From NCBI GenBank assembly GCA_963778715.1, contig CAVZVK010000005.1, positions 2,698-66,697 of the forward strand: DNA of 64,000 nucleotides, given 5' to 3'. The notes under the pieces were generated by a model. That model did not search any database and was not told the origin of the DNA. It worked only from the letters and a program-made list of their open reading frames with translations. The position numbers and the translations under genes are program-made. This document shows positions 11,926 to 42,580 of the stretch, one piece after another; the stretch's first letter is position 1, and each line of letters begins with the position of its first letter. The stretch comes from an uncultured Solirubrobacterales bacterium. GTDB lineage: Bacteria; Actinomycetota; Thermoleophilia; Solirubrobacterales; 70-9.

Positions 11926-11988
11926 GACGTGTCTGAGTTTAGGCCGCCGCATATGGACGGCCCAGAAGATCAGACACCCCCTGCCGAT
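11926..11988. repeat. nested-hairpin element, copy A (outer stem GTGTCTGA/TCAGACAC, inner stem GGCCG/CGGCC)
   Basis: Read directly: GACGTGTCTGAGTTTA-GGCCGccgcatatggaCGGCC-cagaagaTCAGACACCCCC. It lies in the divergent region between the crotonase and ACAD genes. A second copy is at 42525..42580. Confidence 0.6.
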
Positions 11989-12016
11989 CACGAACTGCGA
12001 ACGAGGAGAGAGACCA

Positions 12017-13240
12017 GTGGCGACCGCGACGACCAACGGCTCCAAAGTCATCAAGCCCGACTTCGAGGCGGGCCGCAAGCACTTCATCTTCAGCCAGGAG
12101 CACGAAGACCTGCGCGAGTCGATGCAGTCGTGGGTGAAGAAGGAGCTGTGGCCGCACCGCAACGAGTGGGAGGACACCTACTGGCCGACTCCGACGCGAT
12201 GAAGCGGGCCGGCGAGCTCGGCTTCCTCGGCCTCTGCTTCCCCGAGGAGTACGGCGGCCAGGGCGGCGACTACTTCTACTCGCTGGTCCGCGCCGAGTGC
12301 ATGAGCTACTCCGGCTCCGGCGGCACCAACATGGGCTTCGCCGTGCAGAGCGACATGGTGCTGCCGCCGATCCACCTGCTCGGCACCGAGGAGCAGAAGC
12401 GCCGCTACCTCGAGCCGGGCCTCAAGGGCGAGAAGATCGGCTGCCTCGGGATCACCGAGCCGGGCGCCGGCTCCGACGTCGCCGGCATCCGCACCACGCG
12501 CGATCCGCGACGGCGACGAATACGTGATCAACGGCTCCAAGACCTTCATCACCAACGGCCCCCGCGCCGACTTCATCGTCCTCGTCACCAAGACCGACCC
12601 CGAGCGCCCGCCACGAGGGCATCACGCTCTTCGTCCTCGACCTGCGCGACGAGGAGGGCGAGCACGTGCCCGGCTTCAGCGTCTCGGCCGAGCTGGAGAA
12701 GATGGGAATGCACGCCTCCGACACCGGCGAGCTCTCCTTCGAAGACGTCCGCGTGCCGGCCGACGCCGTGCTCGGCGAAGTCGGCAAGGGCTTCTACCAC
12801 ATCGCCTGGGAGCTCCAGGGCGAGCGGCTGGTCGCCGCCGCCGGCTGCCACGCGGGTGCGGAGCGGATGATCGAGAAGACGCTCGAGTACGCCAAGGAGC
12901 GCGAAGCCTTCGGCCGCCCGATCGGCAAATTCCAGGCGATCCGCCACAAGTTCGCCGAGATGGCGACCAAGACCGAGGCCGCGAAGCAGTTCACCTACGC
13001 GACCGCCTGGCGCTTCGCCAACGGCGAGTACCCGGTGCGCGAGATCACGATGGCCAAGCTCTTCGCCTCCCGCGTCGCCTGCGAGGTCGCCGACGACTGC
13101 GGTCCAGATCCTCGGCGGCTACGGCTACATGAAGGAGTACGAGATCGAGCGCGCCTACCGCGACGTCCGCCTCAACCGGATCGGCGCCGGGCACCGACGA
13201 GGTGATGCTCGACGTGATCGGGCGCTCCTACGGGCTGTAG
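12017..13240 (+). pseudogene. acyl-CoA dehydrogenase (paralog 1), about 5 apparent frameshifts
   Basis: AGGAGAG then GTG 12017. Blocks FLGLCFPEEYGGQGG, KIGCLGITEPGAGSDVAGI, NGSKTFITNG, EREAFGRPIGKFQAIRHKFAEMATK and GGYGYMKEYEIERAYRDVRL are spread over 4 ORFs. TAG at 13238..13240. Confidence 0.85.
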
Positions 13241-13255
13241 AGCGCTGGAAGTCGG

Positions 13256-13435
13256 TCAGGCGTTGGTCGCGATGACCGTGCCGATGGTGGCGAAGATGCC
13301 GAGCATAGTCGCACCCCAGAGCTGGAACATGAGCATGCGCAAATCCCGGATGTCCCGGTCGACGCGCTCGAATCCCGCGTCCACTTTGTGGGCCAGGTCA
13401 TTTAGTCGCTCGTCAGTCCACATCGTTCGCTCCAT
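13256..13435 (-). CDS. small hypothetical protein (59 aa) with a hydrophobic C-terminal segment
   Basis: Internal ATG 13435 of ORF 13256..13600: MERTMWTDERLNDLAHKVDAGFERVDRDIRDLRMLMFQLWGATMLGIFATIGTVIATNA. The codon usage looks protein-like. The upstream part of the ORF overlaps the ACAD2 start. Confidence 0.5.
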   Translation of the reverse strand: MERTMWTDERLNDLAHKVDAGFERVDRDIRDLRMLMFQLWGATMLGIFATIGTVIATNA

Positions 13436-13487
13436 GCTGGCGACGCTAACAGACACCAACGCAGACAACACGCTTCGAGTGTAACGG

Positions 13488-14666
13488 ATGACGGTAATCA
13501 AAGACACAGGACAGCGCGCCACCCTTCCCCCCTTCGGCGAGGAGCACGAGGAGCTGCGGGAGACGGTCAGCCGCTTCGTCGCCAAGGAGATCGCGCCCAA
13601 CGTCGACGAGTGGGAGGAGGCGCGTGAATTCCCCCGCGAGCTCTACGGGCGCTGCGCCGAGCTGGGCTTCCTCGGCCTGAAGTTCCCGGAGGAGTACGGC
13701 GGTCAGGGCGGCACGCATCTGCACGACGCGATCTGGGTCGAAGAGCTGGCGCGCTCCGGCGGCTCCGGCGGCGTCGCCGCCGGGCTCAACGCCCACACCT
13801 CGATCGCGATGCCGCCGATCTTCAACTTCGGCACCGAGGAGCAGAAGCAGCGCTGGCTGGTGCCGGGAATCGCCGGCGAGAAGATCGGCGCGCTGGGGAT
13901 CACCGAGCCGGGCGCCGGCTCCGACGTCGCTGGCATCTCCACCTTCGCCCGCAAGGTCGACGGCGGCTACGTCGTCAACGGCTCCAAGACCTTCATCACC
14001 AACGGCGTCCGCGCCGACTTCCTCGTCTGCGCGGTGAAGACGACGCAGGAGGGCGGCCACGGCGGCATCTCCTTCCTCGTCCTCGAGCGCGAGATGCCCG
14101 GCTACGAGGTGGCGCAGAAGCTGGAGAAGATGGGCTGGCACTCCTCCGACACGGGCGAGCTGGCCTTCACCGACGTCGAGGTGCCCGAGGAGAACCTGCT
14201 CGGCGAGGAGAACGGGGGCTTCAAGCTGATCATGGCCAACTTCGCCTGGGAGCGGCTGCTGATGGCGATCGGCGCCGTCGGCGCGATGCAGCGCCTGATC
14301 GAGCGGACCGTCGAGTACGCCCTCGAGCGCGAAGCCTTCGGCCGCCCCATCGGCAAGTTCCAGGCGATCCGCCACCAGGTCGCCGAGATGGCGACCAAGG
14401 CCGAGACCTCCCGCGCCCTCACCTACAACGCCCTGCGCCTCTTCCACGAAGGCCAGGACTGCATCCAGGACGTGACGATGGCCAAGCTCGTCACCCAGCG
14501 CGCCGTCCTCGAGATAGCCGACCAATCCCTCCAGATCCACGGCGGCTACGGCTACATGCGCGAGTACGGCATAGAGCGAGCCGTCCGCGACGCCCGCCTC
14601 GGCCCAATCGGCGGCGGCACGGACGAGGTAATGAAGGAGATCCTCGGCAAGCTGATGGGGCTGTAG
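13488..14666 (+). CDS. acyl-CoA dehydrogenase (paralog 2), intact
   Basis: 392-aa uninterrupted ORF with FLGLKFPEEYGGQGG, KIGALGITEPGAGSDVAGI, NGSKTFITNG, EREAFGRPIGKFQAIRHQVAEMATK and GGYGYMREYGIERAVRDARL. Confidence 0.93.
   Translation: MTVIKDTGQRATLPPFGEEHEELRETVSRFVAKEIAPNVDEWEEAREFPRELYGRCAELGFLGLKFPEEYGGQGGTHLHDAIWVEELARSGGSGGVAAGLNAHTSIAMPPIFNFGTEEQKQRWLVPGIAGEKIGALGITEPGAGSDVAGISTFARKVDGGYVVNGSKTFITNGVRADFLVCAVKTTQEGGHGGISFLVLEREMPGYEVAQKLEKMGWHSSDTGELAFTDVEVPEENLLGEENGGFKLIMANFAWERLLMAIGAVGAMQRLIERTVEYALEREAFGRPIGKFQAIRHQVAEMATKAETSRALTYNALRLFHEGQDCIQDVTMAKLVTQRAVLEIADQSLQIHGGYGYMREYGIERAVRDARLGPIGGGTDEVMKEILGKLMGL
14631..14662. repeat. left boundary direct repeat (att-like), ATGAAGGAGATCCTCGGCAAGCTGATGGGGCT
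   Basis: Encodes the last residues MKEILGKLMGL of ACAD paralog 2. It matches 18700..18731 with one mismatch. Confidence 0.85.
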
Positions 14667-14713
14667 GGATTAGCAGGGATTTCCCGCTCCTTCTCCCCGT
14701 CGTCCGCATCGGG

Positions 14714-14736
14714 CGGACACGATTCGGACACATCGC
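14714..14736. repeat. internal direct repeat CGGACACGATTCGGACACATCGC (arm-site-like, contains CGGACAC twice)
   Basis: 22/23 identical to 18562..18584. Lies 51 bp inside the left boundary repeat. Confidence 0.75.
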
Positions 14737-14819
14737 TCCGCGCCTGGGCGATCTGATCCTCGGCAGACACGCGCTAGCAGCTATCGAGCACATATCGCTA
14801 CTGTTTCGTGCCCTAGCCC

Positions 14820-15089
14820 ATGTCGCTCGCGTCTGAAAGCGTCCCAACCGCGATGCGCCGCTCCGATCAGCCCCAGCCCGCCCTAGGCAAAGCAATCCGC
14901 CAGCTTCGCCAAAAGCGCGGCGTCACCCAGGAAGACCTCGCCCACGAGGCCGACATCACCACTGGCACCCTCTCCCTGATCGAGCGCGGCCAGGCCAACC
15001 CGACCTGGGGAACCCTCAAGGGCATCGCAGCCGGACTCGGTATTTCGATGGGCGAGCTAGGAAAGCTCGCCGACAAATTCGAGCATTAG
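14820..15089 (+). CDS. XRE/Cro-family helix-turn-helix protein
   Basis: 89-aa ORF. LGKAIRQLRQKRGVTQEDLAHEADITTGTLSLIERGQANPTWGTLKGIAAGLGISMGEL is a classic HTH_3 pattern. An alternative ATG is at 14853. Confidence 0.85.
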   Translation: MSLASESVPTAMRRSDQPQPALGKAIRQLRQKRGVTQEDLAHEADITTGTLSLIERGQANPTWGTLKGIAAGLGISMGELGKLADKFEH

Positions 15090-15173
15090 CTCACTGAAAG
15101 TTTAAGAACTTATCTGTTTACATTCAACTGTGTAAAGTCCCGCTGCGATTCGCCAGGGGTCGGAGGCTCAAAG

Positions 15174-15650
15174 ATGACGGGGTCAGAGGTTTATGTCGGT
15201 ATAAACGTTGCCGGGGGTATCGCTTACCTGGGGGTCTGCCGAGGCAAGCAGCTCGACCTAAGCGATTCTGCCGAAAGCATCGAGCCAAACCGACAACTGG
15301 CGCTGGCAGAGCAGCTAGAGGATTTCCGTGCCCGCCTCGGTCAGGAGTTTCGGCGTCTCGCACCACAAGAAGTCGGGATAGCCCGTACGCGTAAGTTCTC
15401 ACAGTGGCAGTACAAACCAGCCGCGGCACGCTTCGGGCTGGAGGCAGTAGCCATGATGGCAGCCATACAGGAGGGGATCCCCTGCAGCATGGTGGTGCAG
15501 GAGGATGCTGCAAAGGCGGCCCAGGTGCCTGTCACCAAGTTTGCGGAGGCCATGCCTGCCCGATTTGGAATCGATCCAACCCATCACTGGGACAAACGAG
15601 CTCTGGCCTTCGCGACGGCCCTTGCATTGGCGAAGGGCGAAACGAGATGA
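15174..15650 (+). CDS. hypothetical 158-aa protein, possible RuvC/RNase-H-like fold with degenerate catalytic residues
   Basis: GGAGG lies 7 nt upstream of the ATG. N-terminal VYVGINVAGGIAYLGV and later AAARFGLEAVAMMAAIQEGIPCSMV and DKRALAFATALALA resemble the resolvase topology by eye. The stop overlaps the kinase ATG. Confidence 0.55.
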   Translation: MTGSEVYVGINVAGGIAYLGVCRGKQLDLSDSAESIEPNRQLALAEQLEDFRARLGQEFRRLAPQEVGIARTRKFSQWQYKPAAARFGLEAVAMMAAIQEGIPCSMVVQEDAAKAAQVPVTKFAEAMPARFGIDPTHHWDKRALAFATALALAKGETR

Positions 15651-16753
15651 CTGGAGCTCGTACTGAGCTCCGCAAGCTGACACTGCCATATGCCGCCCTG
15701 GAGACGGTTTATCAAGGGGACTGCGAAGTACGGCAATATCGCAACGAGCTAACTGGACAGCTTCAGGTCGGCAAGCGCATAGACGTCCTCGGAATGGAGG
15801 AGGCAGTTGCCTTTCGCGAGGGGGAACTGCTGCAGCAAATTGATCATCAGCACCTTGCCAAGGTGCAAGAGGTCGTTGAGGTGTCTGGCTATCCAGAGCC
15901 AATGCACGTCATCGAGCTGATCATGCCCTGGTATGAGCGGGGAAGTATCTGTGATGCCCTTCTTCGGGGAGAGGAATTCTCAGTGGGAGAGGCAATTACG
16001 CTCATGGCCGGCGGCCTGCTCGGTGTAGCTGAGCTGCACGAGTGTCATGGCATCCTGCATCGCGACCTTAAGTCACCGAACTTCTTTCTCTCCGATGACG
16101 ATCGGTTGTTGGTCGGTGATCTAGGAGCAGCCGCTCCTATGGACACAGATGGTTCGGCGGAGGCCCTGCCAGCGCCACGCCTCTACTCCCCGCCGGAGTC
16201 ACTCACCGTGGGACGACTTGACCGTCGCTCTGAGATTTATCAGTGCGGCCTCGTGCTTCATGAGCTTGTTTCAGGATCCTTCCCGTACGACGATCCGAAG
16301 CTATCGATCGATTCCGTGGCATCGCGGCTGGCAGAGGGAAAGCCAGCACTCCGACCAACCCATTTGATCCACGCTCCTTGGGTACCGCGCGGCCTTCGCT
16401 CAGTTATCAACAAAGCGCTGCAGACAAACCCCGCTGCCCGTTATTCCAGTACGCAACACATGAGTAGGGCGTTGAACCGAGTTACATACGTCGACTGGCG
16501 TCGCATCGTCGACACTCCTGACCGCAAACGATGGGAGGGAACAACGGTCCATCATCCTGGTCGCCGCTTTGCGGTTGAGGCCAAACTCATGCCTCCAAAT
16601 CGCCGTCGCCACAAATCGGCCTGGGCTCTAAGCGGGCTCCAACGCGTGAACCGTTGGCAGCGGATGATTCCCGATGCACCAGCTACAGATCTCGACGGAA
16701 CTCAGGCCACCCACTTCTTCGACCAAATGGTCGTTAGTGCCACCAAACGTTGA
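15647..16753 (+). CDS. Hanks-type Ser/Thr protein kinase (368 aa) with an uncharacterised C-terminal extension of about 100 aa
   Basis: ATGA overlap with the upstream gene. Motifs QVGK43, HRDLKSPN (codons from 16058), GDLG and YSPPE. The Gly-rich loop is degenerate (VYQGDCEV). The upstream 81 codons of ORF 15404..16753 overlap the previous gene and are not used. Confidence 0.85.
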   Translation: MTGARTELRKLTLPYAALETVYQGDCEVRQYRNELTGQLQVGKRIDVLGMEEAVAFREGELLQQIDHQHLAKVQEVVEVSGYPEPMHVIELIMPWYERGSICDALLRGEEFSVGEAITLMAGGLLGVAELHECHGILHRDLKSPNFFLSDDDRLLVGDLGAAAPMDTDGSAEALPAPRLYSPPESLTVGRLDRRSEIYQCGLVLHELVSGSFPYDDPKLSIDSVASRLAEGKPALRPTHLIHAPWVPRGLRSVINKALQTNPAARYSSTQHMSRALNRVTYVDWRRIVDTPDRKRWEGTTVHHPGRRFAVEAKLMPPNRRRHKSAWALSGLQRVNRWQRMIPDAPATDLDGTQATHFFDQMVVSATKR

Positions 16754-17118
16754 GCCGACTGGGTAAGCACGGCGCGTTCGTCTGCAGGGAGATGCTGGAG
16801 CAAGTCCCTGTGTCGCTGCAACCAAGCACTCTGTGCTCGGTAGGACGCTCCGGCACCTTTGCCCTCCGGCTTGATTGCGCCAGCCGCGGCGGCCTCACGA
16901 AGAACTGAACGCAAGCTAACGACCCGCCGGTCGGCCCTGGTCCGGCTCGTTAGAAGTGCTCGAATCGCAGGCGCAAGCCTAGGAATCACGGCAAGTTCGC
17001 CCGCCAACTCCTCGATTGCTCCCTCCAGCGGCCAGCCATCAACTGGAATCCGGCTGATACCGCTAGCGGTCCACAGCAAGCCGACAAGCGACAGCGGGCT
17101 GATCAGCGGCGTCGACAT
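16702..17118 (-). CDS. hypothetical protein (138 aa)
   Basis: Uninterrupted ORF with ATG at 17118 and no motif I recognise. Its 3' end overlaps the kinase 3' end by 52 nt (convergent). It is divergent from the wHTH gene 21 bp away. Confidence 0.5.
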   Translation of the reverse strand: MSTPLISPLSLVGLLWTASGISRIPVDGWPLEGAIEELAGELAVIPRLAPAIRALLTSRTRADRRVVSLRSVLREAAAAGAIKPEGKGAGASYRAQSAWLQRHRDLLQHLPADERAVLTQSAQRLVALTTIWSKKWVA

Positions 17119-17143
17119 TTGTAAGGTTAGACTTTACATTTGT
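17115..17143. promoter_or_regulatory. two ACATTTGT direct repeats 21 bp apart, each overlapping one of two divergent start codons
   Basis: ACATTTGT at 17115..17122 (contains CAT, the ATG of the minus-strand gene) and at 17136..17143 (contains the TTG of the plus-strand gene). AT-rich spacer. Confidence 0.4.
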
Positions 17144-17487
17144 CAGCCGACGGAAAAGCGCGACAGAAACGTGGCGGTCCAAAGCCAACCGACCTCGCTG
17201 ATTGGCTATTTGGCTATGGCCCGAGGCGGAGGTTGCTCGCATGTCTTTGGGGCCCAAAGACGCACCGGGTGATTCCGCCAAAGAAAGGCTTTTCTGCTGC
17301 TCAGCTCGCTGGTATGGCCGGTAAGTCCCGCCCTGCGATTGAGGCGGATATCGCTTCGCTTGAGCGCCTGGGGCTACTCACCCGCAAGCAGATCGGGAAA
17401 CGCGATCGCTTCTTCCCTCGCTCTACCCGGCTGGCCAGAGCAATCAACGCTTTGATCCGCGCGGTTGACGATGCAGTCGGCATCTAA
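17140..17487 (+). CDS. winged-helix (ArsR/MarR-like) DNA-binding protein
   Basis: 115-aa ORF with a TTG start. RRRLLACLWG...FSAAQLAGMAGKSRPAIEADIASLERLGLLTRKQIGKRDRFF fits an H1-H2-H3-wing pattern. Confidence 0.6.
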   Translation: MSADGKARQKRGGPKPTDLADWLFGYGPRRRLLACLWGPKTHRVIPPKKGFSAAQLAGMAGKSRPAIEADIASLERLGLLTRKQIGKRDRFFPRSTRLARAINALIRAVDDAVGI

Positions 17488-17564
17488 TCCGCGTCCCAAA
17501 TCACAGCTCGTGAATGTTCCATCCGAGGGAGCATGTAATCTGTGCCTTGCAAGGTACGGATTTA

Positions 17565-18164
17565 ATGTCTCCACGAATAAAAGATTCCCCACTTCTGACG
17601 AGAAATGAGATCGCTGAGATCAGCGGTGTCTCGATCAATGCTGTGAACAAGGCGCTTGAACAACGGGTCGCAAAGGCGCGGCGACAGCGGGGACGAACAT
17701 TGCTGGCGGCCGATGAGGCGGCGGCGCTGGCGCTGCTCTCGGAACTTCCGATTAGCCTCTCGATCAAGTTCAAACGTGAGGTGCGGAACTGGATCGTCGG
17801 GCGGAACCCCGCCAGAGCGGAGGAGTTCGAGCTTTCGCGAGCCCTGCGAGTTGCAATGACGGAGAACGCCGCCGATGTGGCCAAACGGGCGTTTGACTAC
17901 GTGCGCCTGCGTGAGAGGTACGTCGAGGTCGATCCAGGCAAGAGGGGCGGCACGCCGGTGATCCGAGGGACGCGGGTGCCGGTGCGAACCCTGGCTCAGC
18001 TTGTCGAGGGCGGGGAGAGCCCTAAGGCGCTCAAGGAGGACTACCCGCACATTCCAGAGGAGGCATACGACGTTGCCGTGCTGTGGGCAAAGGGAAATCC
18101 ACGCCGCGGGCGGCCAACCGGACAGCATCGGCTCCAAACGGCGGGTCACGCCCCAACGGCGTGA
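17565..18164 (+). CDS. DUF433-domain protein with an N-terminal HTH-like region (putative antitoxin)
   Basis: ATG at 17565 within ORF 17514..18164. The C-terminal GGTPVIRGTRVPVRTLAQLVEGGESPKALKEDYPHIPEEAYDVAVLWA matches the DUF433 signature as I know it. Confidence 0.7.
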   Translation: MSPRIKDSPLLTRNEIAEISGVSINAVNKALEQRVAKARRQRGRTLLAADEAAALALLSELPISLSIKFKREVRNWIVGRNPARAEEFELSRALRVAMTENAADVAKRAFDYVRLRERYVEVDPGKRGGTPVIRGTRVPVRTLAQLVEGGESPKALKEDYPHIPEEAYDVAVLWAKGNPRRGRPTGQHRLQTAGHAPTA

Positions 18165-18559
18165 AACTCTGGATTGACGAGTGCTTGTCGCCGACTCTTG
18201 TAGCGCGCGCCAATCGTCGCGGATACTGGGCGACCTGCAACCGCGACCGAGATCTGCTCGGCATCGCCGATAAGAACCTGCACGAGCTGGTCATTGACGA
18301 AGAAGCGGTTTTCGTCACGAATGACGAAGCGGATTTCGTCGCGCTCTACAAGAGGGTCGATCTGCACACCGGCCTCCTGATCTTGCCGCAGACCGATACA
18401 CGCGAGTCGCTATGGCGTCTGCTCGATGTCGCGCTCGACTACATCGAGCAGAAGGCCCGCATCGCAGCCGAGACAGCCGCCGAGTGGATGCTAAACAAGC
18501 GGATCGAGGTCGATCCGGGCGGCAAAGCCACCCACAATGATCTACCGGGCAGGGAATAG
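18161..18559 (+). CDS. DUF5615/Mut7-C-like PIN-fold protein (putative toxin)
   Basis: GTG 18161 overlaps the upstream stop (GTGA). KLWIDECLSPTLV...AVFVTNDEADFVAL resembles DUF5615 proteins, which pair with DUF433. Confidence 0.6.
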   Translation: MKLWIDECLSPTLVARANRRGYWATCNRDRDLLGIADKNLHELVIDEEAVFVTNDEADFVALYKRVDLHTGLLILPQTDTRESLWRLLDVALDYIEQKARIAAETAAEWMLNKRIEVDPGGKATHNDLPGRE

Positions 18560-18561
18560 CG

Positions 18562-18584
18562 CGGACACGATCCGGACACATCGC
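18562..18584. repeat. internal direct repeat CGGACACGATCCGGACACATCGC (partner of 14714..14736)
   Basis: 22/23 identical. Lies 115 bp inside the right boundary repeat. It is followed by three CGTGCC motifs at 18651, 18671 and 18681. Confidence 0.75.
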
Positions 18585-18699
18585 CGAGACCACCACCGAT
18601 CACGACCGACAATCGCCCTCATCCCCGAACAAGCTGATTTGCTTGAAATCCGTGCCCTCGGATGATCCCGCGTGCCCCCCCGTGCCATGCTCGGAAGTC

Positions 18700-18731
18700 A
18701 TGAAGGAGATCCTCGGCAAACTGATGGGGCT
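18700..18731. repeat. right boundary direct repeat ATGAAGGAGATCCTCGGCAAACTGATGGGGCT
   Basis: A non-coding relic that would still translate to MKEILGKLMGL followed by TGA. 31/32 identical to 14631..14662. Confidence 0.85.
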
Positions 18732-19466
18732 TTGAAGCCGGTTGCTACCGCCTCGGCCTCACTCCTGATCTGGGTCTGCGCTGCCATGCAGCTGGGCGGG
18801 CCCGCATTCGCCGGGCCGAACAGCCTTCGACCCAGAGGGGATGCGAGCAACGTGCCACGACCACGGATCACGCGGCGGCTGATCCCATTCCCACCCAAGC
18901 GCAAGCGGCAGATGATGGCCTACTCGGAGCGGCACTACGGGGAACACACTTGGCGGCTGCGGCACCCGCGGATGATCGTCGAGCACTGGGCGGAAACGGG
19001 CAGTGCTTCGGCCGTCTACAACACGTTCGCGCCTGACACACCCGATCCGGAGCTGCATGAGCTGCCCAATGTCTGCGCGCATTTCGTCGTCTCGGGGGAC
19101 GGGCGCATCAATCAGCTGGTCTCGACGCGGATTCGCTGCCGGCACACGGTCGGGCTCAACTGGACGGCGATCGGGATCGAGCACACTGGTTTCAGCGACG
19201 GCGAAGTGCTGGGCGATCGGCGGCAGATGCATGCGTCGCTGCGGCTGACGCGATATTTGCGCTGTCGCTTTCAGATCCGGATCCGCAACGTGATCGGCCA
19301 CGCGGAGAGCCTCTCCTCGCCCTACCACCGCGAGCGCGTGCGGAGCCTGCGGACGCAGACGCACGGTGACTGGCGGCATCGGTCGATGCAGACGTACCGG
19401 CGGCAGCTTTGCCATCTTGGCTCCTGCTCAGGCCGAGATGATCGACAGGCCCAGCCCCGCGGCTGA
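18732..19466 (+). CDS. N-acetylmuramoyl-L-alanine amidase (Amidase_2/PGRP-like), probably secreted
   Basis: ORF 18672..19466. Signal-like KPVATASASLLIWVCAAMQLGGPAFA. Then AHFVVSGDGRINQLV, TVGLNWTAIGIEHTG and NVIGHAE. The start is uncertain; TTG 18732 is proposed because upstream codons lie in the island repeat. Confidence 0.65.
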   Translation: MKPVATASASLLIWVCAAMQLGGPAFAGPNSLRPRGDASNVPRPRITRRLIPFPPKRKRQMMAYSERHYGEHTWRLRHPRMIVEHWAETGSASAVYNTFAPDTPDPELHELPNVCAHFVVSGDGRINQLVSTRIRCRHTVGLNWTAIGIEHTGFSDGEVLGDRRQMHASLRLTRYLRCRFQIRIRNVIGHAESLSSPYHRERVRSLRTQTHGDWRHRSMQTYRRQLCHLGSCSGRDDRQAQPRG

Positions 19467-19499
19467 GCCAAGGCTTGGCGGCGACGCCATCTGGGTACC

Positions 19500-20105
19500 G
19501 TGACCCGCATGGAAGAGGTGATCGACGGCGTATTCCACTGGAAGGCGATCCATCCGCGGATCGAAGCCGAGGTGGGCTGTCATTTCGTGCCGGGGTCCGG
19601 CACGCTGATCGACCCGCTGGTACCGGACGAGGGGATCGAGTGGTTCGACGGCCGCGGTGTGCAGCGCGTCGTCCTCTCCACTCGCCACCACCTGCGCCAC
19701 GCACCGCGCTTCGCCGAGCGCTTCGGCTGTCCCATCCTCTGCCACGAGTCGGGCCTCTACGAGTTCGAGGGCGACCCGGACGTCGACGGCTTCGCCTTCG
19801 GCGACCGGCTCGCCGAGGACGTGGTCGCGCTCGAGATGGACTCGATCTCCCCCGACGACACGGTTCTCCAGATCGAAACCGGAGGCGGCGCGCTGCTCTT
19901 CGCCGACAGCCTCATCCACTACGACGCCGTCGGCTTCGTCCCGGACCGATTGATCGGCGACGACCCCGAGGGGGTCAAGCGCAGCATCCGCGCCCGCGCC
20001 GGCGAGCTGCTCCAGGAGCGTTTCGAGCACCTCCTCTTCGCCCATGGCGACCCCCTGCTCGGCGAAGGCCGCGAGGCGCTGCGGGGAATCGCCAGGGGCC
20101 ATTGA
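19500..20105 (+). CDS. hypothetical protein, possible metallo-beta-lactamase-fold
   Basis: 201-aa uninterrupted ORF. VVLSTRHHLRH and LLFAHGDP are only loosely MBL-like, so the family call is weak. Confidence 0.4.
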   Translation: MTRMEEVIDGVFHWKAIHPRIEAEVGCHFVPGSGTLIDPLVPDEGIEWFDGRGVQRVVLSTRHHLRHAPRFAERFGCPILCHESGLYEFEGDPDVDGFAFGDRLAEDVVALEMDSISPDDTVLQIETGGGALLFADSLIHYDAVGFVPDRLIGDDPEGVKRSIRARAGELLQERFEHLLFAHGDPLLGEGREALRGIARGH

Positions 20106-20536
20106 TCTACCTGCTGCGACACGGGGACGCCGAGGACGGCAGCGGCGGCGACGCGGCCCGGCGCCTGACACCGAAGGGAGAGCGGCAGGCCGCAGCCGCA
20201 GGGCAGGCGCTGGATGCGCTCAACGCCGAGATCGACGCCTGCCTGACCAGTCCCAAGCTGCGGGCGGCGGACACTGCCCGGCTCGCCTGCCAGGCACTTG
20301 GCCTAGAGCTCGAGGCCACCGAGGAGCTGCGCGGCGGCCGCTTCGACTCGCTCGTCCTCTCCGCCGGCCGCGGCAACGTCCTCCTCGTCGGCCACGAGCC
20401 CGACTTCTCCGGCGAGGTCGCCCGTCTCACCGGAGCCAACGTGAAGCTGCGCAAGGGCGGCCTGGCGATCGTCGAGGGCAGCACCCTGCTGGCGCTGCTG
20501 CGACCGAAGGACCTCACCCGGATCGCCGCCGGCTGA
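20102..20536 (+). CDS. sixA: phosphohistidine phosphatase SixA-like (histidine phosphatase superfamily)
   Basis: TTG 20102 overlaps the upstream stop. IYLLRHGDAE...RLTPKGERQA...LLVGHEPDFS, in the lower part of ORF 19475..20536. Confidence 0.7.
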   Translation: MIYLLRHGDAEDGSGGDAARRLTPKGERQAAAAGQALDALNAEIDACLTSPKLRAADTARLACQALGLELEATEELRGGRFDSLVLSAGRGNVLLVGHEPDFSGEVARLTGANVKLRKGGLAIVEGSTLLALLRPKDLTRIAAG

Positions 20537-20630
20537 CGGCCGAGGACGTTTGCCGCAGTAGCTGGCATTTCGCCAAGCGTCGAGTAGGGTCGTACTCGAC
20601 CAGTACGCGGCAGGGAGAAAAGAGGGTTGC

Positions 20631-21168: not shown

Positions 21169-21178
21169 TCGGAGTCCC

Positions 21179-21598: not shown

Positions 21599-21599
21599 C

Positions 21600-32350: not shown

Positions 32351-32392
32351 TCTCACTCAGCACAGCGGGCACGGCGGATATTGTGCCGCGCC

Positions 32393-34034: not shown

Positions 34035-34114
34035 CGGGGCGATCGCCCCGGCCGGCCGCGCGCTTGAAAAACGCGGCGGTGGGTAAATGACGGCGAAACG
34101 AATTGGGAGAAACG

Positions 34115-34219
34115 ATGGCACTCACTGCGCTTGCTTCACTGCCCCTCGCGACAACGATCGTCCTGCCGGGGATCATCGTCGTCATCATCATCGTCCTGCT
34201 GCTGATCTGGCTGCTCTAG
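34115..34219 (+). CDS. candidate 34-aa hydrophobic micropeptide upstream of bioB
   Basis: Not in the ORF track (too short). GGGAGA lies 5 nt upstream of ATG 34115. MALTALASLPLATTIVLPGIIVVIIIVLLLIWLL, TAG at 34217..34219. Confidence 0.35.
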   Translation: MALTALASLPLATTIVLPGIIVVIIIVLLLIWLL

Positions 34220-34284
34220 CCGCGAATCGCGAGGCTGATCGCAGAGGCCGGAACCGTCCGGGGCGCCGCCTAGCCTTGCTCCGG

Positions 34285-35433
34285 ATGCCGGCCTTGATCT
34301 CCTTCGAGGAAGCGCTTGCCCTGGGCGAGCTGACCGACCACCAGGAGATCGGCGATGTGGTCGAGCGCGCCTGGGCCGTGCGGCGCGAGAACTTCGGCGA
34401 CTCGACCGACATGTGCTCGCTGGTCAACGCCAAGTCGGGGGGCTGCGCCGAGGACTGCGGCTTCTGCGCCCAGTCACGCTACGCCGAGGCCGACACGCCG
34501 ATGCACGCGATGATGGAGCCTGAGCAGATTCTCGAGCACGCGAAAGCAGCCGAGGCGGCCGGCGCCCACCGCTTCTGCATGGTCACCCAGGGCCAGGGCC
34601 TCTCCAAGCGCGACTTCGAGAAAATTCTCGAAGGGGCGGAAATGGTCGCCGAGCAGACCAACCTCAAGCGCTGCGCCTCGATCGGCCACATGTCGGCGGA
34701 GCGGGCGAAGAAGCTGCGCGAGGCGGGGATCCAGCGGGTCCATCACAACGTCGAGTCCTCGCGCTCCTACTACCCGGAGGTCTCGAGCACCGTCCGCTAC
34801 GAGGGCCGGCTGCGGACGATCCAGGCGGTCAAGGAGGCCGGGCTAGAGACCTGCGTCGGCGGCATCCTCAACCTCGGCGAGACGCCGCGCCAGCGGGTCG
34901 AGATGGCCTTCGAGCTGACCGAGATCAACCCGACCTCGGTGCCGATCAACCTGCTCAACCCGCGCGACGGGACCAAGTTCGGTGACCGCCCGCTGATGGA
35001 CGCCTGGGAGGTCGTCAAGTGGGTCGCGATCTTCCGCCTGATCATCCCCGGCGCCCTCTTCCGCCTCTGCGGCGGCCGGGTCGAGAACCTCGGCGACCTG
35101 CAGCCGCTGGCGGTCAAGGCCGGCCTCAACGGGGTGATGATGGGCAACTTCCTGACAACGCTCGGCGCCGAGCCGGAGGACGACCGGGCGATGTTCGAGG
35201 AGCTGGGCCTGAACGTGGCGCGCCAGCCCGACAACGGCGCCAACCCGCGGCCCGACAACCGCGACGGCTGGCTCGAGGGCGAGACACCGGCGACGCCGAT
35301 CGACGCGTTGATCGACCACCAGGACGAGGCCAATTTCTGGGACCCCTCGACCCAGCTGCGGGTGATCAAGAAGGCGAAGAAGCCGCCGCCCTATCCAAAG
35401 GCCGCCTCCTCCGCGCCCGCGCGGGCGCGCTAA
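34285..35433 (+). CDS. bioB: biotin synthase
   Basis: ATG 34285 within ORF 34087..35433. Radical-SAM GGCAEDCGFCAQS, HHNVESS, and a C-terminal tail of about 50 aa. Uninterrupted. Confidence 0.9.
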   Translation: MPALISFEEALALGELTDHQEIGDVVERAWAVRRENFGDSTDMCSLVNAKSGGCAEDCGFCAQSRYAEADTPMHAMMEPEQILEHAKAAEAAGAHRFCMVTQGQGLSKRDFEKILEGAEMVAEQTNLKRCASIGHMSAERAKKLREAGIQRVHHNVESSRSYYPEVSSTVRYEGRLRTIQAVKEAGLETCVGGILNLGETPRQRVEMAFELTEINPTSVPINLLNPRDGTKFGDRPLMDAWEVVKWVAIFRLIIPGALFRLCGGRVENLGDLQPLAVKAGLNGVMMGNFLTTLGAEPEDDRAMFEELGLNVARQPDNGANPRPDNRDGWLEGETPATPIDALIDHQDEANFWDPSTQLRVIKKAKKPPPYPKAASSAPARAR

Positions 35434-35497
35434 TGACCAACGGAGATCACGCACCCGCGCTCCCGCGTCCGGGGGCGGCCGGGAACACCCTGGGCCG

Positions 35498-36693
<1,196 letters not shown>

Positions 36694-36696
36694 GCC

Positions 36697-37355
36697 TTGC
36701 GCGGCGTCTTCGTCACCGGCACCGGCACCGAGGTCGGCAAGACCGTGGTGGCCGCGGTCATCGCCCACACGCTCGCCTCCGAGGGCGAGACCGTGGCGGT
36801 CTTCAAGCCGGCGGTGACCGGGCTGGAGGAGCGCGGAGAGTCAGACCACGCGCTGCTGCGCCGCGCCGCCGCCTCCAGCCAGAGCGACGAGGAGATCGCG
36901 CCCTACCGCTACGGGCCGCCGGCCTCGCCCCACCTTGCCGCGGCGCTTGCCGGCGAGCGAGATCGAACCCGACCGCCTGCTGGCCGCGGCCCGTGCAGCC
37001 GCGCGAAGGCGCCGACGCGCTCGTCTGCGAGGGCGTCGGCGGCCTGCTCGTCCCCCTCTCCCTCGACTACCTAGTCCGCGACCTCGCCGCCGACCTGGCG
37101 CTGCCGCTCGTCGATCGCCGCCTCGCCGGGCCTCGGCACGATCAACCACACGCTGCTGACGATCGAGGCGGCGCGCGCCGCGGGGCTGACCGTCGATGCC
37201 GTCGTCCTCACCCCCTGGCCGGAGGAACCGACCGGCATCGAGCACTCCAACCGCGAGACGATCGAGTCGCTCGGCAGAGGTGCGCGTCGAGACCCTGCCC
37301 CCTGCTCGACCTCGCGGAGCCCGGCAGCTGGCCGGAGCTGTCCCTCAGTCGCTGA
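36697..37355 (+). pseudogene. bioD: dethiobiotin synthase, about 2-3 apparent frameshifts
   Basis: TTG at 36697. [21 protein letters not shown] (ORF 36697..37074), then [13 protein letters not shown] and [12 protein letters not shown] in the frame of ORF 36483..37355. Confidence 0.8.
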
Positions 37356-38848
37356 CTGCGCCGAGCACGGCCTCGCGCCCGGCCAGCTCCTCGCCGCCGA
37401 GGTTGACCGCGGCCTCGGCTCCCTCGACGGAGACCGTGTCCCGCTTGGCGCGGATCGCGGTCGCGCCGACCACGGCGCCCGGCGCCGCGACCACCGCGCA
37501 GACGCTCATCGCGTGGCCGAGCGCGTCGACGAACTGCTGCGGGCTGGCGTCGGCGAAGTTGGCGCCGACCGAGCCCTGGAAGATCGCGCCGGTGACGGCG
37601 ACGCCGAGGCTGCCGCCGATCATGCGGAACATCGAGAGCACGCCGGAGGCGATGCCGGCCTTCTCGACCGCGACCGCGTTCATCGCGGCGCTGGTCATCG
37701 GCGACATCGTCATCGCGATGCCGATGCCGAGCAGCATGAAGCCGGGCAGCAGGTCGAGGTAGCTGGAGTCGACCGCGATGCCGCTGAAGCTGTAGAGCGA
37801 GGCGGCGACGACGCCGAGCCCGGCGGCGATCAGCCAGCGCGGCCCGAAGCGGTCCGCCAAGCGGCCGGCGACCGGCGCGACGCCGACGATCATCAGGGTC
37901 GAGGGCAGGAACCTGATCCCCGCCTCCAGCGGCGAGTAGCGGAGGATGTCCTGCATGTAGAGGGCGAGGAAGAAGAAGACGCCGAGCATCGAGAAGGAGA
38001 CGATCAAGGCGACGACGACCGCGCCGAGGAAGTTGCGGTCGGAGAAGAAGCGGAATTCGACCATCGGCACCTTGACCCGCAGCTCGATCGCGACGAAGGC
38101 GGCGATGCCGACGGCGGCGCCGACCAGCAGGGCGACGATCTCGGTCGAGCCCCAGCCCCATGCGTTGCCCTCGACCAGGGCGAGGATCAGCGCCGTGAGG
38201 GCGCCGGTGAGCAGCGGCGACGCCGGCGTAGTCGACCTCGCGGCCGACGGTCGTTGTCGCGCGACTCGCGCACGGCGAAGAGCGCCGCGGTGACGGCGCC
38301 GATCGCGACCGGGATGTTGAGGTAGAAGATCGCCCGCCAGCTGACGTGCTCGGTGAGGAGGCCGCCGACCACCGGGCCGACCGCGAGCGCCAGCGCCGAG
38401 ACCCCCGCCCACATCCCCATCGCCTTGCCGCGCTCGCGCGGCCGGGAAGGCGTCGGTGATGATCGAGAGCGTCGCCGGCATCATCAGCGCCGCGCCGACG
38501 CCCTGGACGACGCGGCTGGCGACGAGGTCGGTCGGAGTTCTGACGGCGAAGCCGGCCGTCGCCGAGGAGAGGGCGAAGATGACGACGCCGAAGAGGAACA
38601 TGCGGCGGCGGCCGAAGATGTCGCCGAGCCGCCCGCCGGTGGCGAGCAGCACGGCGAAGGAGAGCGTGTAGCCGTTGATCGTCCACTCGAGGCCGGAGAT
38701 CGAGGCGTGCAGGTCGCGCTGGATCGACGGCAGGGCGACGTTGACGACGGTGTTGTCGAGCATGATCATGAACAGCGCGAAGCACATCGCTCCGAGCGTC
38801 CACCACTTGCGGTTGTCGTCGGTGATCAGGTGGCTGGTAACGGGTCAA
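37345..38848 (-). pseudogene. MFS transporter (DHA2/EmrB-QacA type), about 4-5 apparent frameshifts
   Basis: RKWWTLGAMCFALFMIMLDNTVVNVALPSIQRDL and GRLGDIFGRRRMF (ORF 37345..38787). AMGMWAGVSALALAVGPVVGG (ORF 38187..38420). Many TM segments. The TTG start at 38848 overlaps the marR stop. Confidence 0.8.
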
Positions 38849-39386
38849 GCCGGTCCGACCTCCTTCAGGTGCTCATAGGTCTGCGCGATGTCGTCGCGGT
38901 CCATCAGCGAGTCGACCGCGGCGTCGAGCTTGCGCCGCTGCGCCGCGGTGAGGCTCGCGGCGAACGTCTCCATGCCCGGCCTGGCGCACGACCATCAGGG
39001 TGTCGACGAGCTTCTTGCCCTTGGCGGTGATCGCGACGCGGCGGACGCGGCGGTCCTCGGGGTCCTCGACCCTGGTGGCGAGCCGCTTCTTGACCAGGCC
39101 GTCGACGGCCCGGCTCATCGAGGGGACCGAGACGCCGAAGCGCCTCGGCCAGGTCGCCGACCTGGCGCGCCTCGGTCGCCTCGCCCAGGCCCACCCAGCT
39201 CGAGCAGCGCCTTGCACTGGGTCATCGAGAGGCCGCTCTCCTCGATCACCCGCAGCAGGTTGCCGCGGTCGTAGAGGAAGAGGTGGCGCAGCAGGGCGCT
39301 GATCCGCGCCGCGGTCTCCTGCGCCTCCTCGCTGACCTCCGGGTCCGCCACCTCTCGACGATCGCCGCGATCTCGCTCGCTTGCAT
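38845..39386 (-). pseudogene. MarR-family transcriptional regulator, about 3 apparent frameshifts
   Basis: ATG at 39386. LSMTQCKALLELG, VGDLAEAFGVSVPSMSRAVDGLVKKRLATRVEDPEDRRVRRVAITAKGKKLV, spread over ORFs 39115..39429, 38904..39194 and 38873..39412. TGA at 38845..38847. Confidence 0.75.
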
Positions 39387-39392
39387 GCGCAT

Positions 39393-39435
39393 AATAGTTG
39401 CATATGCGACAACTATTTCTCAATGGCAATAGTTG
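39393..39435. promoter_or_regulatory. three AATAGTTG half-sites (one inverted pair plus a third copy), candidate MarR operator in the marR/bioA divergent region
   Basis: AATAGTTG at 39393..39400, its complement CAACTATT at 39410..39417, and AATAGTTG again at 39428..39435. Read directly. Confidence 0.45.
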
Positions 39436-39505
39436 CTCGTGTGATCGACATCACGCAGAACTCGCGTTCCGGCCGCGCAGCGCGGGTCTAGTCTCCGGCT
39501 CGTCG

Positions 39506-40835
39506 GTGATCGTCGGTGCGGATCATGCGCAGCTCGATCGGGACCACCTCTGGCACCCGTTCACGCAGCAGCAGGCCTGGTGCGAGGAAGAGCCGCTGAT
39601 GATCGAGCGGGCGGAGGGCTCCTATCTGATCGACGAGGAGGGCCGCCGCTACCTCGACGGCGTCTCCTCGCTCTGGTGCAACGTGCACGGCCATCGCCAC
39701 CCCGGCATCGACGCCGCGGTGCGCGAGCAGCTCGGCAGGGTCGCCCACTCGACCATGCTCGGCCTCTCCCACCCCGGCGCCGCCGAGCTGGCCGCGCCGC
39801 CTGGTCGATCTCGCCCCGCCCGGCCTCTCGCGCGTCTTCTACTCGGAGTCGGGCTCGACCGCGGTCGAGATCGCGCTGAAGATGGCCTTCCAGTACCAGC
39901 AGCAGCGCGGCGGCCAGCACGCCCGCCGCACCTCCTTCGTCCACCTGCGCGACGCCTACCACGGCGACACGATCGGCTCGGTCTCGGTCGGCGGCATCGA
40001 CCTCTTCCACTCCGCCTACCGGCCGCTGCTGTTCTCGACCCACGCAGCCGAGCCCGGCGACGCGGCCGACCTCGAGCGCATCCTCGACCTGCACGAAGAA
40101 GAGATCGCCGCGGTGATCGTCGAGCCGCTGGTCCAGGGCGCCGCCGGGATGCTCATCCACCCGCCCGGCTACCTGCGCGCCGTGCGCGAGCTCTGCGACC
40201 GCTACGGCGTGCTGCTGATCTGCGACGAGGTGGCGACCGGCTTCGGCCGCACCGGCACGATGTTCGCCTGCGAGCAGGAGGGCGTCGCGCCCGACCTGCT
40301 CTGCCTCGCCAAGGGCCTCACCGGCGGCTACCTGCCGCTGGCGGCGACCCTCGCCACCGAGCGGATCTACGAGGGCTTCCTCGGCGCCTCCGAGGAGTGG
40401 CGCACCTTCTTCCACGGCCACACCTACACCGGCAACCCGCTCGCCTGCGCCGCCGCCCTCGCCAACCTCGACGCCTTCGAGAGCGAGCGCACGATCGAGC
40501 GCCTGCAGCCGAAGATCGCGCTGCTGCGGGAGCTGCTCGACGAGGTCGCGAGCGATGCCCGAGGTCGCCGAGATCCGCGCGCGCGGCTTCATGGTCGGAA
40601 TCGACCTCGGCGAACACGACCCCGCCCTCCGCCTCGGCCACCAAGTCACCCTGGAGGCCCGCAAGCGCGGCGCGATCATCCGCCCGCTCGGCGACGTGGT
40701 CATCCTCATGCCCCCGCTTTCGATCTCCGACAGAGGAGCTGCAGAGAGCTGGTGCTGATCACTGCCGAGTCGATCGAGGCCGCCTGCACGGCCACAATGC
40801 GGGCGCTGCCGGAGCGTCTCGCTCAGGCAGCCTGA
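39506..40835 (+). pseudogene. bioA: adenosylmethionine-8-amino-7-oxononanoate aminotransferase, about 3 apparent frameshifts
   Basis: GTG at 39506. [11 protein letters not shown] and [13 protein letters not shown] (ORF 39398..). [28 protein letters not shown] and [15 protein letters not shown] (ORF 39882..40835). MVGIDL...[14 protein letters not shown] (ORF 40555..). Confidence 0.85.
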
Positions 40836-40856
40836 CCTTTCCGCGTAGCGTGCGGT

Positions 40857-41430
40857 GTGATGGATTCGGGGTTCACCCGTAGTAGGGGCGTGAGCGAGGC
40901 AGTCCTTACAGCCGCGGTCGAGGTGCCCGGAGAGGCCGCCTTCGACTTCGAGCGGCTGTATCGATCGAGCCGCGACGACGTCTACGCCTATGCCGCCGGC
41001 CTGCTCCGCGACCGGGCCGCGGCCGAGGACGTCACCGCGGCGGCCTTCGAGCGCGCCTACCGCAAGCGCGCCCGCTTCAACCCGCGAAAGGGCTCGCCGA
41101 GGGCCTGGCTCTTCGGCATCGCCCGCAACGCTGCGCTCGACGAGCTGCGACGCCGCAGCCGCCACGCGAAGCTGGCGCAATGACCCAATCGACGAGACCA
41201 TCGACGTGGGCGCCGATCAGCAGCGAGCGGCAGCGAGTTGCGGCTGGTCCTGACCGCCGCGCTCGTACAGCTCGAGCCGCCGCGAGCGGGAGCTGATCGC
41301 GCTCAAGTTCTTCGCCGGGCTCAGCAACGGTGAGATCGCCCGTGTGCTCGGCACCAGCGACTCGAATGCCGGCACCAAGCTGCACCGCGCCGTCAACAAG
41401 CTGAGGGAGGCATGCAATGGAGCGCTCTAG
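40857..41430 (+). pseudogene. ECF-type sigma-70 family RNA polymerase sigma factor, about 2 apparent frameshifts
   Basis: FERLYRSSRDDVYAYAAGLLRDRAAAEDVTAAAFERAY and AWLFGIARNAALDELRRR (ORF 40857..41183). A shifted frame gives RELIALKFFAGLSNGEIARVLGTSDSNAGTKLHRAVNKLRE. TAG at 41428..41430. Confidence 0.8.
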
Positions 41431-42519
41431 GGATTACGAGGAGATCGCCGTGGTCCTGGCGGAAGCGCGATCGACTCCAACCCCTAACTTCTGCGAGGAG
41501 CTCGATGAGCTGGTGGCGAGCGGGTTCCGGCGGGACCCACGCGTTGACCGACCTCGTCTGTCGGCTCTCGCGGACCGCCTGCGTGACCTCTCTCCCCGGC
41601 GCGCCCTCTTCGCCACCGGCGGTACTGCGCTGGCCGCGATCGCACTGGCGACCGTAGTCGTCGCCAGCCTCGATTCGGGCTCGGGCCCGGCAACGATCGA
41701 ACGCCAGGCTGCCCCCCGACCGGCAAAGACCCAGTTCTCGGAAGAGATCCACGCGCCCGCTGGAGTCCCCGCCAACGCCGGCTCCTCGGCCGGCCAGGAA
41801 TCCAGCGCTGTCGAAGCCGAAGTGATCCCGCCCAACCGCGGCGTCCGTCAGCGCGAGATCGAGCGCTCGGCCGAGATCGGCCTGGTTGCCGAACCGGATG
41901 ATGTCGCCGCCGACTCGGCCAGGGTGTTCAGCGCAGTCCACGACGTACGGGGAATCGTCCTGCATTCGACGACCACGGCCGGAAGGCATGCCGGAGCCTA
42001 TTTCGACCTGCTCATCCCCAGCGCCAGGCTCGGCGATGCACTGGCGTCCTTCTCGGCGATCGACGAGGTGCGAACGCGACACGAGGCGACAACAGACATC
42101 ACCGCCCCCACGGTCGCCCTGGGCGAACAGCTCCAGGACTCGCGGGCGAAGGTTGACAGCCTCCTTGCCCAACTCGCCACGACCGAATCCGAATCCGAAC
42201 GGGAAGCGGTCGAAATCGAGCTGAGCCGCGAGCGCCACCGTGCCGCCGTCCTGCGCGGCCGCCTCGACAAGCTGCACCGCCGCGCCGACTACTCGCGCGT
42301 CTCGCTGCGAATCGAGAGCTGGCTCCTCCTCCCACTCGACCGACGGCGCCTGGGGAGTGGATGACGGCCTTCCACGACGCCGGCCGCATCCTCGGCATCG
42401 CCGCCGGCGTCGCCCTGATCGGCATCGCCATCCTCGCCCCGTTGGCCCTGATCGCTCTCCTGGCCTGGCTCGCCAGAAGCGCCTGGCTGCGTTGGGCACG
42501 CCGCCGCGCCCTCGCTTAA
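41417..42519 (+). pseudogene. DUF4349-like membrane protein (possible anti-sigma partner), one apparent frameshift near 42330
   Basis: The start overlaps the sigma gene end. Central TM ALFATGGTALAAIALATVVVA. The coiled C-terminal half follows (ORF 41417..42364). A shifted frame adds the TM tail ILGIAAGVALIGIAILAPLALIALLAWLA and TAA at 42517..42519. Confidence 0.6.
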
Positions 42520-42524
42520 CCGGA

Positions 42525-42580
42525 GACGTGTCTGACTTTAACCACCAAATACGGTGGGAAAACTCAGACACGCCCCCGAT
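42525..42580. repeat. nested-hairpin element, copy B (outer stem CGTGTCTGA/TCAGACACG, inner stem CCACC/GGTGG)
   Basis: GACGTGTCTGACTTTA-aCCACCaaatacGGTGGg-aaaacTCAGACACGCCCCCGAT. It starts 6 nt after the stop codon at 42517..42519 and lies upstream of the NUDIX gene. Confidence 0.6.

Follow-up and report, generated by a model that had tools for sequence, protein, structure and literature searches.

The DNA analysed here (hereafter the window) is a 64-kb stretch with a G+C content of 69% from the genome of an uncultured Solirubrobacterales bacterium, and it carries two copies of a short palindromic element. Copy A lies in the intergenic region between a gene for enoyl-CoA hydratase (ECH) and a gene for an acyl-CoA dehydrogenase (ACAD1), and copy B takes up the short interval that separates the stop codon of a DUF4349-family gene from a Nudix gene's leaderless promoter. 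A first-pass annotation of the window had left three options for the element: a structured RNA, a DNA structure recognised by a protein, or a repeat of the repetitive extragenic palindromic (REP) type. As described below, REP-type or protein-recognised DNA fits best, and the option of a structured RNA was not supported. The element belongs to a real, previously undescribed family of short palindromic repeat in uncultured soil Solirubrobacterales. We favour, with moderate confidence, its reading as a small, non-coding, non-autonomous mobile or duplicative palindromic DNA repeat similar to the REP doublets forming hairpins (REPINs).

The palindrome and its family

The sequences of both copies were confirmed exactly as the first-pass annotation had written them. 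The pattern GTGTCTGA-N15-45-TCAGACAC matched the window twice, at 11929-11977 and 42528-42571, and none of 100 dinucleotide-preserving shuffles matched it once; in the 64 kb, the arm 8-mer is confined to the four arms of copies A and B. The two inner stems that had been proposed were also found: GGCCG/CGGCC at 11942-11946 and 11958-11962, and CCACC/GGTGG at 42542-46 and 42553-57. Both copies, on both strands, fold much better than shuffled sequences, either as RNA (z of -4.0 to -9.0) or as DNA (z of -3.7 to -8.4). While the conserved arms and inner stems of the proposed architecture stand, what had been described as a C-rich 3' flank really mirrors the G-rich 5' flank (GGRC...GYCC), and the palindrome is therefore longer than first stated. 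The trinucleotide GAT, common to copies A and B, is no feature of the family. The half-motif CAGACACC that had been pointed out upstream of ACAD2 (position 13450) is explained by chance, as three occurrences were seen for 2.0 expected and 35 of 100 shuffles reached three.

The family extends far beyond these two copies. When one genome per species was scanned with the pattern CGTGTCTGANTTT-N10-40-TCAGACAC, at least 118 loci matched, nearly all of them in metagenome-assembled genomes of Solirubrobacterales. Among the matches listed, the few remaining ones were chance hits in low-GC Firmicutes and others, while the real matches were all extragenic and nearly all exactly 45 nt long. Given this near-uniform length, the canonical form is represented by copy B, and the other window copy, A, is a variant that is 5 nt longer. 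From 111 distinct copies an alignment was made and a covariance model was built, which was run on the window with filters off and, with default filters, on 745 kb of carrier loci and 405 kb of unselected DNA of relatives. In the window, the model scored copy B at 66–69 bits and copy A at 36–38 bits, on both strands, the next match reaching 13 bits.

The unit is a near-perfect palindrome of 46–52 bp with the consensus nnnGGGCGTGTCTGAGTTTnnCCGCCAnATnTGGCGGnnAAACTCAGACACGCCCnnn. It starts with GGRC-GTGTCTGA-s-TTT and ends with AAA-s-TCAGACAC-GYCC; the centre between them varies, is self-complementary, and is AT-rich in its middle. An internal loop is formed by positions 20-21 opposite 38-39. Two central types were distinguished, one C-first (CCCGCC...GGCGGG; about 75%) and one G-first (GGGGTC...GACCCC; about 25%). 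The covariation that had been noticed between the inner stems of the two copies proved genuine in the alignment: its score of 0.185, compared with 0.113 for shuffled alignments, was reached by none of 500 shuffles, and controls in which the pairing was slid gave about half of it. Symmetric pairing was present in 81.7% of the cells of the alignment (76.5% after shuffling), and the pairs 16/43, 22/37, 23/36, and 27/32 alternate between G-C and C-G or A-U. In one relative (L123), compensating changes were seen within the arms themselves, which read GTTTCTGA/TCAGAAAC. Because of this covariation and of the compensating arm changes, the self-pairing of a single strand is either under constraint or regenerated by a copying process.

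A second arm type, GAGTCTGC/GCAGACTC, occurs at a few loci. Palindromic elements of like layout with other arms (GAGTCTGC...GCAGACTC and GCGTCTGC...GCAGACGC) were observed at L002:329-373, L005:6456-6500, and L038:2231-2275. The core GTCTG/CAGAC, which they have in common with the family described here, suggests that there is a wider superfamily.

The arms are strongly tied to complete elements. In 887 kb, the arm 8-mer was counted 232 times inside 116 elements and twice elsewhere, where about 13 occurrences were expected, and this count revealed no half-sites. With the covariance model, only exact-arm copies and no degenerate ones were recovered from the 745 kb of carrier loci, and one canonical and one variant copy, with nothing else, from the 405 kb of relatives. 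The copies are solitary, with distances of 3.4–30 kb wherever a stretch of DNA holds two. Their density is low: two in the 64 kb of the window, and about three copies other than the seeds in some 880 kb of carrier loci. A literature search on the motif, or on palindromic repeats in Solirubrobacterales, returned nothing relevant. A collection of viral contigs held no match to the element, and a phage origin is thus unsupported.

Genomic placement and turnover of copies

Gene context was assigned by a coding-potential score on both sides of the element, by which 83 copies were classed. Of these copies, 52 (63%) lie between divergent genes, 29 are in tandem contexts, and two (2%) lie between convergent genes, compared with base rates of 22% divergent and 20% convergent at the same loci (p = 1e-15 for the excess and p = 1.5e-6 for the deficit). 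The element thus lands or survives almost only 5' of genes, mostly between a few and a few tens of nt upstream of the -10 box of a -10-only and often leaderless promoter, a placement that could be caused either by insertion targeting or by selection. The arrangement TANNNT-N5-8-in-frame start, by which a leaderless promoter is recognised, was found beyond the element on 48 of 157 gene-start sides, compared with 2 of 157 in shuffled controls. Since a -10 box and a leaderless start follow the element at many loci, the element there stands outside the adjacent mRNA. Between the end of the element and the -10 box lie 2 to 58 nt, a distance that differs even between orthologous loci; for this reason, a role of the arm as a -35 element or as a fixed activator site was rejected. 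Where a gene ends beside the element, its stop codon is 3–17 nt away.

As a separate observation, promoters in the flanks of loci L001–L118 look -10-only, with TAnnnT (often TACCCT, TAGGGT, or TAGCCT) and a start codon 6–8 nt downstream, which implies that leaderless mRNAs are common and intergenic regions very short in this lineage.

The proteins encoded beside the elements fall into 99 clusters without a shared theme, and a pathway-specific regulon was therefore rejected. Named by eye from their sequences, without a database run, the flanking genes include those for IspH, DnaX, Nudix, FadB, acyl-CoA dehydrogenase, ThiE/ThiO, BioB, PNPase, Ku, and Zwf/Gnd.

The coordinates of both window copies are collected in Table 1. 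Copy B was correctly described as lying just after a stop codon, which is 5–8 nt before the element; at orthologous loci the upstream stop codon is 3–14 nt before it. The layout TAnnnT-N6-ATG that follows copy B also appears at the orthologous loci L051, L064, L082, and L118. The placement of copy A upstream of ACAD1 was likewise correct, the GTG start being at position 12017, about 40 nt past the arm. Copy A is probably within the 5' untranslated region (UTR) of ACAD1, between an operator-like motif and the ribosome-binding site, because a TACTGT box is present at 11910-11915 and a ribosome-binding site at 12004-12011. Its context may thus be exceptional, as it would be transcribed with the gene.

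Table 1. Coordinates of the two element copies and of the features next to them in the window
Feature	Position	Strand	Basis or remark
Copy A, full element	11922..11984		Covariance-model limits; variant, 5 nt longer; 49-nt core 11929-11977
Copy A, left arm GTGTCTGA	11929..11936		Pattern match
Copy A, right arm TCAGACAC	11970..11977		Pattern match
Copy A, inner hairpin GGCCG(CC)/(GG)aCGGCC with CATAT centre	11942..11962		Sequence and folding
Copy B, full canonical element	42521..42578		Covariance model; 44-nt core 42528-42571
Copy B, left arm GTGTCTGA	42528..42535		Pattern match
Copy B, right arm TCAGACAC	42564..42571		Pattern match
Copy B, inner hairpin CCACC/GGTGG around AAATAC	42542..42557		Sequence and folding
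-10-like TATGGT (42580-42585), 6 nt, Nudix ATG (42592)	42580..42594	+	Leaderless layout, 8 nt past copy B
TAA stop of the DUF4349-family gene, immediately 5' of copy B	42517..42519	+	Sequence
Motif GAAAGTAGGAAGTGCTACTGTCCAC, outside the element, just upstream of copy A	11895..11919		9/9 relatives and window

The motif just upstream of copy A deserves a description of its own. Its 25 nt (GAAAGTrGGAAGTGCTACTGTCCAC), with the inverted repeat AAGTG-N8-CACTT, are present in the ECH/ACAD1 intergenic region of all relatives examined (L199–L207 and L087) and are retained with or without the element. A regulator of the MerR family is encoded in the same divergent operon. The motif is probably the operator of this regulator, overlapping the TACTGT -10 box.

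Comparison of orthologous sites showed that the element is present or absent as a block. At the IspH site, it was seen in eight genome loci, its distance upstream of the IspH -10 box being 9 nt. In a comparison set of 76 unselected IspH upstream regions from metagenomes (74–96% identity), one canonical element and one arm variant were found. The closest IspH relatives, with 93–96% amino-acid identity, are cleanly empty (...ccaccg|gTACCCT...), while filled loci read ...ccacc[GTGTCTGA...TCAGACACgcccctcg]gTACCCT...; the latter are limited to one shallow IspH sub-clade, where they are interleaved with empty ones. Similarly, at the site of copy A the element is found in none of nine relatives with 85–94% identity in the acyl-CoA dehydrogenase, all of which keep the neighbouring 25-nt motif. 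Contigs of soil DNA that are about 97% identical in the flanks bridge 11919/11920 to 11997-12018 by short alternative sequences, without copy A. The BioB site holds the element in L023 and L101 but not in the window. No excess of 2–5-nt direct repeats, as would be left by target-site duplication, was detected at any boundary offset in comparison with permuted flanks, and the alignment of filled and empty IspH sites held none.

At one of the IspH loci (L097:81-170), the 3' flank of the element (gtccctcggtacgggtcaggcac) is repeated three times in tandem, directly adjoining it and pushing the IspH promoter away. This repetition may be a trace of copying or repair of the element.

The copies of the element behave as a population. 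The 28-nt centres differ on average at 11.0 positions between different genomes at the same locus and at 12.0 positions between unrelated loci, and both C-first and G-first centres were found at identical junctions of a single locus. Centres at the same locus are thus about as different as unrelated ones. In addition, L012 and L029, which are unrelated loci of different genomes, have identical or near-identical copies, a near-copy of copy B was found at an aminotransferase locus on a soil contig (X1), and the copies scatter around a single consensus, GTTTTCCCGCCACATATGGCGGGAAAAC. These findings are consistent with repeated copying or with exchange between copies, and not with the slow vertical divergence of fixed sites.

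A proposed mobile palindrome and its alternatives

We read the element as similar to a REPIN because this is the closest published description. REPINs are REP doublets that form hairpins and are mobilised by RAYT transposases in Pseudomonas and Enterobacteria; they have a pair of invariant inverted ends and a hairpin-forming spacer that is less conserved but keeps its length and pairing, compensatory changes are common, and the excised unit is asymmetric (PMC3116915). The element shares with them a symmetric palindrome with invariant inverted ends and a spacer that keeps its length and its pairing through compensatory changes, as seen in the 111 copies and in L123. It is also extragenic, its copies form a cloud around a master sequence, and the block that is excised or inserted is slightly asymmetric. 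In this reading, the element would be copied or lost as a whole block, and its invariant arms would be recognised by a putative sequence-specific protein, be it a transposase, a recombinase, or a DNA-binding protein of the host. It would have to fold back as single-stranded or cruciform DNA, and this would account for a centre that stays paired even as its sequence drifts or is exchanged among copies. The element may also influence the adjacent promoters.

The differences from REPINs are also considerable. The element measures 46–52 bp, compared with roughly 90–110 bp, its apparent copy number is low where REPINs number tens to hundreds per genome, and its host belongs to the Thermoleophilia lineage of Actinomycetota. 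REP- and REPIN-type repeats are known mainly from Proteobacteria and usually occupy 3' or random extragenic space, while the element prefers the 5' side of genes and divergent promoters. For its non-palindromic arms lacking GTAG, its apparently low copy number, and its promoter-side distribution, the element is not filed as a REP.

Several points weigh against a mobile palindrome. The arm GGRCGTGTCTGAsTTT has neither internal self-complementarity nor a GTAG-like tetranucleotide, whereas every true REP is an imperfect palindrome in its own right and carries a conserved tetranucleotide of GTAG type. The RAYT gene, which encodes a Y1/HUH transposase, is a single-copy gene in REPIN genomes and is typically flanked by repeats; here, no transposase or recombinase was found among the annotated genes of the window or, by eye, beside the listed loci, the genomes not having been searched as a whole for RAYT. 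Decayed copies and half-sites, the usual traces of decaying selfish repeats, were not found, and this pattern, together with the strong bias towards promoters, is explained equally well by purifying selection for a host function. The copy number looks low, nearer to that of a regulon than to that of a classic REP family. Finally, no insertion was caught happening, and the indels at orthologous sites could be precise deletions of an unstable palindrome.

These points lead to the first alternative, which we consider unlikely: a cis-regulatory site of the host, either a long palindromic operator or a cruciform driven by supercoiling, upstream of -10-only promoters. Its arms would be bound by a conserved protein that sets the activity of the flanking promoter or promoters, and the gains and losses of blocks would represent regulon turnover. 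The extreme promoter-side bias, with the element beside the -10 box, speaks for it, as do the apparently low copy number and the invariant arms without degenerate copies or half-sites, which would be expected under purifying selection. The arms are also 36 bp apart, start to start, and the AT-rich centre would favour cruciform extrusion. Binding sites, however, usually arise by point mutation and not as clean blocks of about 51 nt, and the flanking genes lack a common theme. The spread of 2–58 nt to the -10 box, orthologous loci included, argues against a fixed contact with RNA polymerase. Moreover, a dimer reading double-stranded DNA predicts no covariation from G-C to C-G between the halves.

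A concrete version of this alternative would see two inverted sites of WhiA type, putatively formed by the GACAC in each arm. WhiA, an actinobacterial factor, binds a 5-nt asymmetric motif as a monomer, and nothing that is known of it calls for a palindrome of 50 bp or for pairing in the centre. The sequence GACAC is the published WhiA motif; it acts at variable distance and in either orientation upstream of promoters, those of leaderless genes included, and is similar to the GACA core found in the -35 element (PMC3781837, PMC10243135). The element is alike in having GACAC/GTGTC in each arm, contained in TCAGACAC and GTGTCTGA, respectively. A match of five nucleotides is weak evidence for a WhiA site, as GACAC is expected by chance in about 2% of 13-nt arms, and the variant arms (GAAAC, GACTC) are without the motif.

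A second alternative, an improbable one, is a minimal miniature inverted-repeat transposable element (MITE), in which a DDE-type insertion sequence would be reduced to its two terminal inverted repeats, joined back to back. The covariation would then be inherited in both the left and the right end from parents with differing inner repeat positions, and no hairpin would be needed. The terminal inverted repeats with their invariant outer ends (about 22–25 bp per half), the insertion or deletion as a block, and the two discrete central types, which at about 75% and 25% resemble subfamilies, are compatible with such an origin. The absence of a 2–5-nt target-site duplication, both at every boundary offset and between filled and empty IspH sites, argues against it. 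Nor was any longer element with these ends found in the DNA of carriers and relatives, about 1.3 Mb in all, and the centres vary continuously around the consensus with their pairing kept, even within one orthologous locus.

Two other known systems bear some likeness to the element. The Correia elements of Neisseria are also short non-coding inverted repeats, polymorphic between strains, which occur near gene starts and could alter expression. They measure 100–155 bp, duplicate a TA target, and carry promoter and IHF sites, whereas the element is one third of this size and shows no duplication. Integron attC sites, the shortest of which are of similar length, have conserved outer inverted sequences around a variable self-pairing centre and are read as folded single-stranded DNA. 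The attC outer core, GTCTAAC...GTTAGAC, is resembled by the arms of the element. As a candidate, attC was rejected: the arms GTCTGAG...CTCAGAC fail RYYYAAC/GTTRRRY at two positions, which include the invariant AAC/GTT. Unlike attC sites, the element is also without cassette arrays or a nearby integrase, and lies predominantly between divergent genes.

The last alternative is a structured RNA, that is, a regulatory hairpin in a 5' UTR, a small RNA, or a factor-dependent or bidirectional terminator. Its attraction lies in the high stability of the hairpins (RNA z down to -9.0), in the probable position of copy A in a 5' UTR, as judged from the neighbouring sequence, and in the GC-containing hairpin that directly follows a stop codon in copy B and other copies in tandem contexts, as in intrinsic terminators. 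A scan of the window with Rfam 15 at the gathering score gave a tRNA elsewhere as the sole match; around both copies, relaxing the threshold to E up to 10 yielded chance microRNA models of 15–17 bits at best, and at 18 related loci nothing was found next to the elements at the gathering score. The strands are not distinguished either: the strand that is compatible with wobble at pair 10/35 pairs no better elsewhere in the element, and in tandem contexts no wobble bias towards the sense strand was detected (27 G-T and 42 A-C mispairs; p = 0.09). No T-run follows the stem, the flank consensus being G-Y-C-C and then G-rich. Soil metatranscriptome contigs gave a depth over both copies that was either zero or uninterpretable, as the contigs come from relatives without the element, and no conclusion was drawn from this lack of usable signal. 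With no Rfam family, no strand preference, a conserved stem sequence without a U-tract, two of the 83 copies between convergent genes, the place at which a terminator would serve best, and most copies upstream of promoters, with the -10 box and leaderless start beyond the element at many loci, a structured RNA or a terminator is very improbable.

The mobile palindrome that we favour and a regulatory role are compatible with each other, as a mobile palindrome may be kept where it is helpful.

Other window features and biological meaning

Some further observations concern the window itself. In many of its genes, frameshifts have led to splits or fusions (9654-13205, 42240-43235, and 43272-46487): the enoyl-CoA hydratase runs into a carboxyltransferase, ACAD1 is in three frames, the N-terminus of the Nudix protein is shifted, and LemA forms a fusion with a GMC oxidoreductase. 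Contigs of relatives have deletions of 1–2 nt with respect to the window at 11662, 11703, 12185-12194, and 12498/9. The pattern resembles indel errors of a long-read assembly, not pseudogenes. The tandem acyl-CoA dehydrogenase paralogues at 12017-13205 and 13488-14666 are 70–87% identical over long stretches, and a third fragment of the same C-terminus is present at 18694-18731. An XRE-type helix-turn-helix gene and a DUF5615 gene are located at 14820-15089 and 18083-18559, and few genes were called between 14.8 and 18.6 kb. DUF5615 is often paired with DUF433 as a toxin-antitoxin-like module. Further downstream, a run of small open reading frames without Pfam match (52900-55300) adjoins a tRNA gene (55219-55292, minus strand) and may be the remnant of an integrated element.

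For annotation, the palindrome should be treated as a repeat and masked, and calls of a terminator, riboswitch, or small RNA should be avoided; its presence or absence can serve as a strain-level marker. What is new about it is that it has half the usual REP/REPIN size and stands almost exclusively on the promoter side. If it is mobile, it points to a hairpin-recognising enzyme in the lineage, and would offer a compact system for structure-dependent DNA transposition; if it is kept for its function, it would be a natural cruciform or operator cassette that rewires leaderless promoters. A further idea, quite unlikely in our estimation, would join both properties in a portable promoter module. 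The palindrome, with its length of about 50 bp, would copy itself, insert just upstream of -10-only leaderless promoters, and couple or reset the flanking, often divergent, promoters. Such a module could act by cruciform extrusion, by its two inverted protein-binding arms (possibly for a WhiA-type factor), or by both. Were this true, regulatory wiring in small-genome soil Actinomycetota would spread by transposition and not by point mutation.

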